Positions 13,748 through 30,992 of a stretch of DNA of 64,000 bases are shown piece after piece. The notes beneath the pieces were generated by a model. The model saw nothing but the letters and a program-made list of their open reading frames with translations. It was not told the origin of the DNA and ran no database searches. The position numbers and the translations under genes were made by a program. Every line of letters starts with the position of its first letter. The first letter of the stretch is position 1. Source of the DNA: Eledone cirrhosa (lineage: Eukaryota); NCBI GenBank assembly GCA_964016885.1, contig OZ024746.1, positions 36,828,001 to 36,892,000 of the forward strand. Reading direction: 5' to 3'.

Positions 13748-13817
13748 GATAAATCTAAAATAAAGTACCAGTAATGTACTGCGATAATTGCTGGCCTTGT
13801 GCCAAAAGTAGAAACAA

Positions 13818-15840
13818 TTATTTTAATTTATATTCCTTTGAGTTCCGATGAGCCACTCTGTTTTTTTAAATATGTTAATTATTTTCAACTGAACCAGATC
13901 AATTATGATACATAGTCATCTGATCCAGAAATATTATACGGAGTAGCGAAACAATTGTAAACGAGCATTATTATTATTAATATTATTATTATTATTCTCT
14001 ACATTCCTTACATCAAACTAAATATGTTGACAATTTTTTAATAATGTCTTCCTTGTGAAATGTGTGGTCTTGTTTTGCTTAACTAATGATTATTTCCATC
14101 TCTGCGCACCTAACCTCTGCATGAACCCAGCCACCTAGCTGCTTTCTACTGCATATTGCACATTGAGCACATGCCTTTACGCTTTGGCTTCTAACTAACT
14201 CACCAATCTTTCCTCTCATATCTACTCTACTATCTCAATCTCTCTCTTTAAGATTGGTTACTCTTGAACTGTGTATACTTGAGCTCCCGTAGTTGAGCTA
14301 TTTACTGTTAGAAATCACCATGTTGAGCAAACAGGAACTCAGAATATCGCTTAAGTCCATACCTATTCCGGACAGAAAGACATACCTCAAACTATTAATA
14401 CAGAGTGTCAACTCTTTCATCCGAAGAATACGATGGAAAGCGTACCACTTTGACCGTGAGGTTGCTGCTGACGCCGGAAGTACAGCAAATAGATATGGAT
14501 TTGCCACATGCAAGAACCCCCCACACAACATCCTGCTGGACCCTTTTGAGAAAGATTTATTCAACTTCGTCAGGAGCATTAAGTTCAAAAAGCATTATAG
14601 ACACATGAATAACTTCCTCACTATATTAGCAACAACTATAAACAAATTTAAGGATAGCAACCTCTTACATGTTATGTCTGACAAAACCAACAATCTATAC
14701 ACCATGACTCCTGAAATTTACAACTCTTTCCTTCTTAAAGAAATCAACAAAAACTATTAAAAAAACTACACCCTCCGGTGTAAACGTACTTAACCGAAAA
14801 GCCCAGGCTTTGGTTAAGGACTTGCATTTGGATAGATTTACCCACCCTTATGTACCAACAATCCCAAGGTTCTCTCTCAATGACCACAAGCCAAACTTTA
14901 TAGAGAACCCATCCATTATACTCATAAGCCCAACCACATCTGACCTGGGCCGCATCATTAAGAACATCCTTGATAGGTTAATCCCTGGGCTACGGGATAA
15001 TAACACCTACAAGTTGTAGTCCAACACTGGCCAAGTCATCAGATGGTTCTCCGATCTAAGGTCCAAGCAATCTATGAGGTTCATCCAATTTGATATAGAC
15101 AGCTATTACGCGTCAATAACCCCGGATCTGCTCAACAAAGCACTAGCCCTAGCAACCACCAACTCGGACATAACCAATAATGAGATTAACATCATACTTA
15201 TGGCTAGGCAGTCTATCATTGAATTCAACGGAGCACCCTGGACTAGAAAAGATAGAACAGATAACTTTGACATTACGATGGGCTCAAGCGACTCGGCGCA
15301 AGTCACCGATTTAGTTGGGATTTAACTATTACGTAACATCAGAGAGGAAATCCCACCCATGCAAGGTGGAATATACAGGGACGACGCCCTATTTGCAGTC
15401 CACAATTGCACTAATCGGGGAATCGATTTGCTTAAGAAACAATTTCATAGATTCTTAAAAAATGACGGTCTCTCTATCACCATCGAGCTGAACCATAAAG
15501 TAGTAAACTTCCTAGACGTCACCCTTGATCTCAACAATAACCTTTATAACCCTTACCATAAACCGGGGGAAATACTCACATATATTAGCCCACACTCTAA
15601 CCACCCACCGGCAGTCATCAGAGCAGTAATCAAATCTATCTCCTATAGCATCTCAATGCTATCAGCAAATGAAGAGATATTTATAAACCACGCACAATAT
15701 TATAATAAAGCTCTCTCTGAAGCTGGTTATAAAACAATCAATTTATTACATACCAACATGCCATAACACAGCAACTCACCATAATAAACTTAATACTAGA
15801 ACTAGTAATACCTTAGCATATAGCCAGATTCGCCAGAATT
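13818..15840 (+). pseudogene. PLE family A: pseudo-LTR, N-terminal domain and RT; degenerate and 3'-truncated
   Basis: ATG 14320; SLKSIPIP..IRRIRWKAYHF, SDKTNN, QFDIDSYY (motif A), MGSSDSAQVTDLVG (motif B), GIYRDD (motif C), VNFLDV; stops at 14758, 15017, 15323 plus frameshifts. Confidence 0.9.
13842..13962 (+). ncRNA. Type I HHR motif in family A pseudo-LTR (copies 30661-30781 minus, 33720-33840 plus)
   Basis: gtt-CCGATGA-gccactctgt...acggagtagc-GAAAC-aatt-GTA-aac; palindromic stem III ACAATTGT; ~95 nt stem II. Confidence 0.7.
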
Positions 15841-16122
15841 CGCCAACTAAGCACACAGCACACACAAAAACAAGATGGCGTAGGACAGAACAAAGGAGAG
15901 GCACACAAATAAAGAAGAGAATCCCCAGTCACTGAAGAGGTCACATAATGTGTGACGGAAAAACTTTGACAATATATGAACAATCGTCTGGTTGTGGAAC
16001 CAACCACCCAACCGGAAATTTATAAATTCCTTCATTTATAAATTTAATTAATAATAAATTGAAGTGAAAGCACTGGTGCGTGTGTTTCTTGTTGGCAACA
16101 TGACCCTCCCAAAGTATAACAA
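15841..16122 (+). mobile_element. PLE family B 3' end (HHR at 15928-15970) fused to family A
   Basis: Matches 5184-5470; mirror copy at 28500-28782. Confidence 0.85.
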
Positions 16123-16132
16123 TATATATATA

Positions 16133-16171
<39 letters not shown>

Positions 16172-16181
<10 letters not shown>

Positions 16182-28243: not shown

Positions 28244-28398
28244 TTCATTATTTCTGAAGACGGCGTATATATGTGTTTGGTATGTATATTTAATCTTGAT
28301 AATTTGTATAATTTTGTATAATTTTGTACATAGATCTGTTGAATATGCATACCAATTCTAACACATATATATCCTAGAAACGATCGTTAAATAATGAA
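28244..28398 (+). ncRNA. Type I hammerhead ribozyme (family C, 3' pseudo-LTR)
   Basis: Same sequence as 21133-21287. Confidence 0.85.
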
Positions 28399-28443
28399 CT
28401 TTTTTTGTTTAATATAAGGAATTGTTTATTCATTATTTGTTTA

Positions 28444-28488
<45 letters not shown>

Positions 28489-28782
28489 TATATATATATA
28501 TTGTTATACTTTGGGAGGGTCATGTTGCCAACAAGAAACACACGCACCAGTGCTTTCACTTCAATTTATTATTAATTAAATTTATAAATGAAGGAATTTA
28601 TAAATGTCCGGTTGGGTGGTTGGTTCCACAACCAGACGATTGTTCATATATTGTCAAAGTTTTTCCGTCACACATTATGTGACCTCTTCAGTGACTGGGG
28701 ATTCTCTTCTTTATTTGTGTGCCTCTCCTTTATTCTGTCCTACGCCATCTTGTTTTTGTGTGTGTTGTGTGCTTAGTTGGCG

Positions 28783-30806
28783 AATTCTGGCGAATCTGGC
28801 TATATGCTAAGGTATTACTAGTTCTAGTATTAAGTTTATTATGGTGAGTTGCTGTGTTATGGCATGTTGGTATGTAATAAATTGATTGTTTTATAACCAG
28901 CTTCAGAGAGAGCTTTATTATAATATTGTGCGTGGTTTATAAATATCTCTTCATTTGCTGATAGCATTGAGATGCTATAGGAGATAGATTTGATTACTGC
29001 TCTGATGACTGCCAGTGGGTGGTTAGAGTGTGGGCTAATATATGTGAGTATTTCCCCCGGTTTATGGTAAGGGTTATAAAGGTTATTGTTGAGATCAAGG
29101 GTGACGTCTAGGAAGTTTACTACTTTATGGTTCAGCTCGATGGTGATAGAGAGACCGTCATTTTTGAAGAATCTATGAAATTGTTTCTTAAGCAAATCGA
29201 TTCCCCGATTAGTGCAATTGTGGACTGCAAATAGGGCGTCGTCCCTGTATATTCCACCTTGCATGGGTGGGATTTCCTCTCTGATGTTACGTAATAGTTA
29301 AATCCCAACTAAATCGGTGACTTGCGCCGAGTCGCTTGAGCCCATCGTAATGTCAAAGTTATCTGTTCTATCTTTTCTAGTCCAGGGTGCTCCGTTGAAT
29401 TCAATGATAGACTGCCTAGCCATAAGTATGATGTTAATCTCATTATTGGTTATGTCCGAGTTGGTGGTTGCTAGGGCTAGTGCTTTGTTGAGCAGATCCG
29501 GGGTTATTGACGCGTAATAGCTGTCTATATCAAATTGGATGAACCTCATAGATTGCTTGGACCTTAGATCGGAGAACCATCTGATGACTTGGCCAGTGTT
29601 GGACTACAACTTGTAGGTGTTATTATCCCGTAGCCCAGGGATTAACCTATCAAGGATGTTCTTAATGATGCGGCCCAGGTCAGATGTGGTTGGGCTTATG
29701 AGTATAATGGATGGGTTCTCTATAAAGTTTGGCTTGTGGTCATTGAGAGAGAACCTTGGGATTGTTGGTACATAAGGGTGGGTAAATCTATCCAAATGCA
29801 AGTCCTTAACCAAAGCCTGGGCTTTTCGGTTAAGTACGTTTACACCGGAGGGTGTAGTTTTTTTAATAGTTTTTGTTGATTTCTTTAAGAAGGAAAGAGT
29901 TGTAAATTTCAGGAGTCATGGTGTATAGATTGTTGGTTTTGTCAGACATAACATGTAAGAGGTTGCTATCCTTAAATTTGTTTATAGTTGTTGCTAATAT
30001 AGTGAGGAAGTTATTCATGTGTCTATAATGCTTTTTGAACTTAATGCTCCTGACGAAGTTGAATAAATCTTTCTCAAAAGGGTCCAGCAGGATGTTGTGT
30101 GGGGGGTTCTTGCATGTGGCAAATCCATATCTATTTGCTGTACTTCCGGCGTCAGCAGCAACCTCACGGTCAAAGTGGTACGCTTTCCATCGTATTCTTC
30201 GGATGAAAGAGTTGACACTCTGTATTAATAGTTTGAGGTATGTCTTTCTGTCCGGAATAGGTATGGACTTAAGCGATATTCTGAGTTCCTGTTTGCTCAA
30301 CATGGTGATTTCTAACAGTAAATAGCTCAACTACGGGAGCTCAAGTATACACAGTTCAAGAGTAACCAATCTTAAAGAGAGAGATTGAGATAGTAGAGTA
30401 GATATGAGAGGAAAGATTGGTGAGTTAGTTAGAAGCCAAAGCGTAAAGGCATGTGCTCAATGTGCAATATGCAGTAGAAAGCAGCTAGGTGGCTGGGTTC
30501 ATGCAGAGGTTAGGTGCGCAGAGATGGAAATAATCATTAGTTAAGCAAAACAAGACCACACATTTCACAAGGAAGACATTATTAAAAAATTGTCAACATA
30601 TTTAGTTTGATGTAAGGAATGTAGAGAATAATAATAATAATATTAATAATAATAATGCTCGTTTACAATTGTTTCGCTACTCCGTATAATATTTCTGGAT
30701 CAGATGACTATGTATCATAATTGATCTGGTTCAGTTGAAAATAATTAACATATTTAAAAAAACAGAGTGGCTCATCGGAACTCAAAGGAATATAAATTAA
30801 AATAAT
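28783..30806 (-). pseudogene. PLE family A pseudo-LTR plus RT, degenerate
   Basis: Mirror of 13818-15840 with the same stops; ATG at 30303. Confidence 0.9.
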
Positions 30807-30992
30807 TGTTTCTACTTTTGGCACAAGGCCAGCAATTATCGCAGTACATTACTGGTACTTTATTTTATCGACCCCGTAAGGATGAAAGGCAAAGTTAACC
30901 TCGGCGGGATTTGAACTCAGATCGTAAAGGGACGTAACTATGCTGGAAAGCATGTCCGACCCTCTACCGATACTGCCAATTTACCGCCATTC
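30807..30992 (-). mobile_element. tRNA-derived SINE, full length
   Basis: Minus strand GGCGGTAAATTGGCAGTATCGG..GAGTTCAAATCCCGCC..TTTGCCTTTCATCCTTACGGGGTCGAT..CCTTGTGCCAAAAGTAGAAACA. Confidence 0.85.

Follow-up and report, generated by a model that had tools for sequence, protein, structure and literature searches.

Among the Penelope-like elements (PLEs), the Hydra clade is recognised by RWK and DKT motifs, a CxCX5C linker, CxxC and CxH motifs, the absence of CCHH and a (TA)n target (Craig et al., 2021, PMC8557442), and a tail on one end only is already known for PLEs from the available parts of that paper and of PMC3846280. In vitro, both target strands are cut and extended, and the tail is the stretch between two start sites of the reverse transcriptase (RT), according to the accessible text on the Poseidon element PAc (Frangieh et al., 2024, PMC11167929). 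For L1, insertions with self-annealing inverted duplications have been reported in the accessible portions of two sources (bioRxiv 10.1101/2024.12.14.628481; PMC10191854), the second of which counts three such events (0.3%). The PLE studies cited here leave open how the inverted arms and the tail on a single end arise. Here we analyse a window of 64,000 nucleotides of Eledone cirrhosa (contig OZ024746.1, positions 36,828,001 to 36,892,000 of assembly GCA_964016885.1), in which a PLE, element C, lies in a 17 kb palindrome that extends into neighbouring DNA. Our results point to a single Penelope-type insertion in a TA microsatellite, with the two fixed 3' ends of the family at its outer borders and a left arm that was probably copied from DNA when the first cDNA folded back.

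A palindrome larger than the element

Self-BLAST of the window aligned positions 13756-21082 with 23553-30867 on the minus strand, at 99.52% identity over 7329 columns, which confirms the nearly identical arms described in the initial annotation. Two of the 19 mismatch columns are a shift of the TA tract, leaving 17 true substitutions and 7 small indels. The arm-specific codon differences noted earlier, FLKN/FFKN (15457/29166) and PPAV/PLAV (15609/29014), are present. The arms continue 2415 bp beyond element C into the flank, where they are 99.7% identical, and are separated by a non-mirrored spacer of 2.47 kb.

On the right, a full 7111-bp unit of element C (21342-28452, plus strand; positions within the unit are given as C1 to C7111) has its no-tail 3' end at 28452 and is followed by the right target (TA)n tract (28453-28501). 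Its first nucleotides, 21342-21478, are the tail sequence. Upstream lies a 5'-truncated partial unit in tandem (pLTR; C6852-7111, 21082-21341, plus strand), which meets the inverted arm at an inner junction with a 1-nt overlap. The inverted arm runs from C7111 back to C2212 (16173-21082, minus strand), and passes without a seam through the TA tract into an inverted copy of the 2415 bp right flank (13756-16172, minus strand), comprising this TA tract, the 3' end of a family B repeat, a broken family A copy and 60 bp of a SINE (short interspersed element). This flank copy joins, with a 2-nt microhomology (TA), a 16-nt stub of the element C tail end (C122-137; 13742-13757, minus strand), which sits on the left target (TA)n tract (13704-13744), itself preceded by (CT)n. 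The left arm had been thought to end directly on (TA)n, the stub having been overlooked. Likewise, the inner junction had been placed at the 5' tip of element C, the cDNA supposedly having reached the 5' end of the RNA. Position 21082 is instead the 5'-truncation point of the upstream partial unit (C6852), and such points vary widely between loci. Arrival at a defined RNA 5' end is not supported.

We consider it highly probable that the palindrome is real. An assembly artefact, whether from a chimeric read that folds back or from two haplotypes assembled as if inverted, might be entertained because no reads of the same species stand behind the junctions, and because two haplotypes would also show balanced differences. 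However, the spacer is not mirrored, the 17 substitutions include derived states on both arms, the window, whose contig measures 102.6 Mb in a genome of 3.0 Gb, contains no N, and no artefact would add an exact tail-end stub at the left junction. We therefore regard an artefact as very improbable.

Two fixed ends and a 16-nt stub

Copies of element C at 34 other loci end either at C7111 (no-tail end) or 137 nt beyond it (C137, tail end), and then continue in a TA tract. Automatic pairing at 60 loci, including the window, found 38 head-to-head structures, 36 of which combine one tail and one no-tail end; these loci were picked as best matches to the window copy, which biases them to long, young insertions. 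One of the two exceptions was a false tail/tail pair, involving a separate fragment 9 kb away. The other was the window locus, which conforms to the rule when the 16-nt stub is counted. Four further structures, missed by the pattern as their ends were a few bases short or different, follow the rule by eye. These results resemble those for Poseidon PAc, where both strands are cut and extended and the tail is delimited by two internal start sites of the RT. They differ in that the accessible text of that study describes start-site use that did not differ between the strands (PMC11167929), whereas here the two ends use different sites in all 36 valid automatically paired cases. Inverted arms and flank copying lie outside the subject of that paper, as far as its accessible text goes.

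Two further observations concern end structures. Element C insertions nested in other element C insertions, at G000:C4:216.80 Mb and C4:272.79 Mb, each have their own tail/no-tail pair. Family A (window 31126-33974) also forms a head-to-head structure, one end of which is longer by about 260 nt, possibly a long tail.

Reverse-complemented, the stub at 13742-13757 is identical to 21463-21478, the segment that makes up the final 16 nt of the tail; the chance expectation for such a match in the window is 3.5e-4. Tail ends throughout the genome show the same end motif followed by TA. Hence, with the stub as its tail end, the locus has a normal pair of ends, and the stub is set apart from the truncated 5' tip by 7.3 kb of DNA, namely the right flank (2415 bp) followed by C7111 to C2212. 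Genome pattern searches for stubs of 15-16 nt gave 53 + 22 matches, against 1 + 0 in reversed controls. On inspection of all 75 matches, about 45 were seen to face a truncated no-tail copy in head-to-head orientation, 36 of these by BLAST and the others by eye, while most of the remainder sit in bare TA tracts. A flank duplication was found at none of the 75 except the window locus, and, for two stubs with unique upstream DNA (L125 and L143), no inverted repeat within 20 kb reached the stub itself. We infer from these sequences that the stub is a product of second-end priming, in which the left target end was primed separately. Some other tail stubs (L077/L107, L093/L110, L133) either switch to C7037 at a short match (TAGA) or leave out most of the tail, which suggests a candidate hotspot of template switching 15-16 nt past the tail start site. 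Elsewhere in the window, a near-perfect palindrome of 388 bp (12596-12982; 97.9%) adjoining a TA tract resembles minimal two-ended PLE insertions.

A probable single event and local template

The two parts of the arms are equally diverged, with 5 substitutions in 2415 bp of flank (0.21%) and 12 in 4900 bp of element C (0.24%; Fisher p = 1). Polarised against other copies, the C part has 6 derived substitutions on the left (one of them ambiguous) and 6 on the right, in addition to two deletions on the left. For the flank, where outgroup copies are few, 3 substitutions fall on the right, 1 on the left and 1 is ambiguous. No private variant is common to both arms in 2221 unmasked bp; the single-copy part of element C has 4 private variants in 2180 bp. 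This pattern fits one event followed by ordinary mutation, and a short delay would still be compatible with it.

An older origin of the flank palindrome, centred on the TA tract, with element C inserted later at its centre, would be in line with the similar sequences that flank TA tracts at some other element C loci. Yet, those other similarities are older repeats at 90-93% identity, the flank and C parts at the window locus are equally diverged, and such an insertion would have two no-tail ends, which is seen at no other locus. We consider this history the most improbable of all.

The content of the flank bears on where its second copy came from. Next to the right TA tract lies the 3' end of family B (28502-28785, minus strand), a multi-copy repeat that is PLE-like by a hammerhead-like motif seen by eye. 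It truncates the 3' end of a broken family A PLE copy (28786-30806, minus strand), which is followed by a SINE-like piece (30807-30990, minus strand), so labelled from its appearance and in the initial annotation rather than by a library match; the duplication stops inside this piece, at 30867. In genome searches, in which the best 40 candidates per search were scored, the junction between the end of element C and family B occurred in the two window arms only, and neither the B/A junction nor the region of the SINE and 5S rRNA gave a near-identical second copy. Among these candidates the flank thus proved locus-specific, as the initial annotation held, and the check for the same flank on other copies of element C, proposed there as a sign of 3' transduction, found no second element-flank junction and hence no donor locus. 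The SINE had been taken to show that the left arm is the derived copy. It is a standing part of family A rather than a local insertion, and since it is present in many family A copies it is not a local marker. The polarity itself stands on other grounds, because the right copy of the flank runs on unbroken past 30867, which makes it the template and the left arm the derived copy. Beside the SINE lies a full 5S rRNA copy (31010-31128; Rfam, 102.6 bits). Both are bracketed by an 18-bp repeat (30789-30806 and 31126-31143) inside family A, of which the other copies shown have the SINE without 5S.

In the absence of a shared private variant and of a second junction of element C with this flank, transduction and a two-step origin are disfavoured. 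Given one event and no donor, the flank part must have been copied from the target DNA, in agreement with the earlier claim that it is DNA-templated at this locus. Alternatively, a read-through transcript, produced elsewhere (3' transduction) or later from the window copy itself, might have supplied element C plus flank as RNA. PLEs are able to carry host DNA, according to the available part of PMC3846280, and the test for shared private variants (0 in 2221 bp) is limited in power. Against this, no second C/B junction or near-identical flank was among the scored candidates, the right flank continues beyond 30867, and an additional insertion could have given this locus only by precisely replacing the earlier left junction. 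Moreover, the ends found here amount to a single tail end and a single outer no-tail end. An RNA template for the flank is thus quite improbable.

A proposed fold-back of the first cDNA

How might a single insertion copy its own flank? We propose that the TA tract was cut on both strands, and that its two ends primed reverse transcription at the no-tail (C7111) and tail (C137) sites; the end structure is observed, and the priming would explain it. The cDNA on the right end would have run for 7.37 kb and stopped at C6852, and that on the left end would have aborted after 16 nt, both lengths being those observed. The free 3' end of the long cDNA would then have primed itself at C2212, with an overlap of 1 nt, and extended along its own strand. 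This extension would have crossed the primer junction and proceeded 2415 nt into the covalently attached flank strand, which was likely exposed by resection. Finally, the extended end would have joined the stub via the 2-nt microhomology observed at the outer junction. The polymerase may have been the RT of the element or a host repair enzyme. Outward copying has a continuous template, because a covalent bond links the cDNA to the flank strand, and it agrees with the self-annealing model of L1 inverted duplications. This route seems the likeliest, although inward copying from the stub would yield an identical product.

Several points weigh against fold-back. The self-priming overlap is only 1 nt, as at many ordinary inner junctions, and hence no mark of fold-back. 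Following C7111, the arms have TA tracts that differ in length by 2 units, as re-priming would also produce. Three-way comparisons of arms and units are star-like and, at low power, do not tie ordinary arms to one direct unit. Neither junction is spanned by read records; the runs found share at most 0.31 of words and show many differences at fixed sites, and apparently stem from another species. Moreover, there is a single clear case, and a small second case (C4:~365.74 Mb) has its flank copy outside the tail end, which outward fold-back leaves unexplained.

The same insertion may also be read in the opposite direction. The stub would have switched to the right flank at 30867 and copied it to the break. 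Synthesis would have gone on with element C RNA as template, starting at C7111 and ending at C2212, and the product would have been joined to the first cDNA in the manner of ordinary inverted copies, so that only the flank was DNA-templated. The ordinary look of the inner junction, the different TA tract lengths of the arms and the 137-bp case on C4 would all suit such inward copying, as would the stubs elsewhere that switch template at the same point (L077/L107, L093/L110). However, it would need invasion of duplex DNA on 2 nt of homology, on a strand that resection would remove, and then a second jump across the break to a no-tail site already used. We regard inward copying as possible but rather unlikely, and retain outward fold-back as the probable route.

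A broader proposal would treat the PLE enzyme as a two-ended machine: each target end would always begin at an RNA site other than that used by its partner and, once the second cDNA stalls at about 16 nt, the RT of the element would fold back the first cDNA and copy DNA across the insertion junction. PLEs themselves would in this way generate inverted duplications of kilobase size from host DNA beside TA tracts, in a few percent of inverted insertions. We consider this proposal unlikely as a whole.

Frequency among other insertions

A kilobase-sized flank copy was found at 1 of 41 inverted structures, namely the window locus, besides one doubtful case of 137 bp. At the latter (G000:C4:365737019-365746100; L207, L208, L244, L245), an identical copy of 137 bp of the no-tail flank lies in inverted orientation past the tail end, with a TA tract on either side. 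This is possibly a small second flank duplication, and the flank copy there may predate the insertion.

Other candidates for a flank duplication were rejected: the arms at C9:16.94 Mb belong to another PLE family, C4:216.80 Mb is one element C nested in another, C4:205.1 Mb has two LINE-like copies at 90-93%, C2:225.32 Mb has an imperfect match of 40-80 bp, and C4:169.2 Mb is a repeat at 94.6%. At G000:C1240, about 10046-11052 (L241), some 700 bp of inverted right flank (98.9% over 355 bp) and a LINE-like piece lie within the internal TA tract of element C; this flank copy is inside the element and missing from the arm, and was hence added after the insertion.

Ordinary inverted arms end at the other RT start site without copying the flank, and some of them exceed the upstream partial unit in length. 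They are more simply explained as second-end cDNAs, and a hybrid origin would be compatible. Arms and direct units share their haplotype among the loci listed, which would be expected of one RNA as well as of two RNAs from a single source. At G000:C1:421.2 Mb (L053-L055) and at L152, the inner junctions are perfect palindromes, with arm and direct copy starting at the same position of element C, which might mean that fold-back occurred in some ordinary copies.

The window locus is therefore likely a rare, aberrant PLE insertion and not the usual mode of movement. The outline drawn in the initial annotation was right for this locus. It went too far in treating inverted PLE arms in general as DNA-templated fold-backs, and in proposing a routine route to segmental duplications, neither of which is supported by the other arms or by 1 large case in 41.

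Identity of element C

Judged from its sequence, element C is a young Hydra-clade-like Penelope retrotransposon with a TA target. The 7111-bp unit consists of an open reading frame (ORF) region and about 4.4 kb of non-coding sequence rich in TA/TG microsatellites (24073-28452), which has many haplotypes among copies. The ORF (21580-24072, plus strand) would encode an RT with a GIY-YIG-type domain, and has one stop (22336-22338) private to the window copy. Its translation contains YRDD and IVY..YIG motifs. Its neighbours in the Atlas score 0.94-0.98, several with the RVT_1, GIY-YIG and HTH_animal families, as expected of a PLE with an endonuclease (EN+). A Pfam scan found no families in 9 window proteins, and a search of the PDB with the element C protein gave nothing significant. 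The family is young, as the 40 best full-ORF matches, out of 4185 first-look candidates in the genome, are 99-100% identical.

The architecture is that of a PLE, with a partial tandem, an inverted 5'-truncated copy and a tail on one end, as in the Hydra clade. The motifs RWR, DKT, CNCRNKANC (CxCX5C), CRLC (CxxC) and CNH (CxH) are present, CCHH was not seen by eye, and the target is (TA)n, all matching that clade in a comparison of motifs with its published description (PMC8557442). In the pLTR, a hammerhead-like core motif (CUGAAGA ... GAAA; 28244-28398, also 21133-21287, plus strand) and its stems are visible by eye and in the fold; none of the 125 Rfam matches at E<=1 was a hammerhead. In contrast to the Hydra clade, whose elements are generally <3 kb, a tendency rather than a strict criterion, the element C unit measures 7.1 kb. 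Its tail is also longer, at 137 nt versus 30-40 in Hydra elements, and the accessible part of PMC8557442 makes no mention that we found of a flank duplication.

Comparison with L1 and implications

The locus combines inverted local target DNA, a short microhomology and an age equal to that of the insertion, as do the insertion-coupled inverted duplications of L1. Those are likewise rare, join at about 2 nt of microhomology, and are explained by self-annealing of a 3' overhang in the available portions of the two reports (bioRxiv 10.1101/2024.12.14.628481; PMC10191854). As described there, the L1 duplications lie on the reciprocal (5') end, whereas here the side of primary reverse transcription is duplicated. 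Those in the accessible part of PMC10191854 are somatic and measure 52-220 bp (0.3% of events), in contrast to 4.9 kb of element and 2.4 kb of flank in a genome assembly.

Twin priming of L1 (Ostertag and Kazazian, 2001, as cited in the work discussed above) is similar in that two target ends each prime a cDNA and the products join head-to-head by microhomology. In L1, the second priming takes place at internal positions that vary, and there is very little overlap between the two pieces. In contrast, element C uses two fixed sites and its arms overlap by kilobases. Our literature search, which covered few subscription papers, found no PLE report of flank duplication or twin priming. By this comparison, the window locus would represent a variant of a process that is known for L1.

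The use of one tail and one no-tail start in every insertion is offered as a rule for testing, and the 16-nt stub at the second end would be a captured intermediate of PLE insertion. The locus indicates that a PLE insertion can double kilobases of adjoining DNA, as L1 rarely does. With 4185 first-look candidates of element C in this genome, even a rare accident of this kind would add palindromes.

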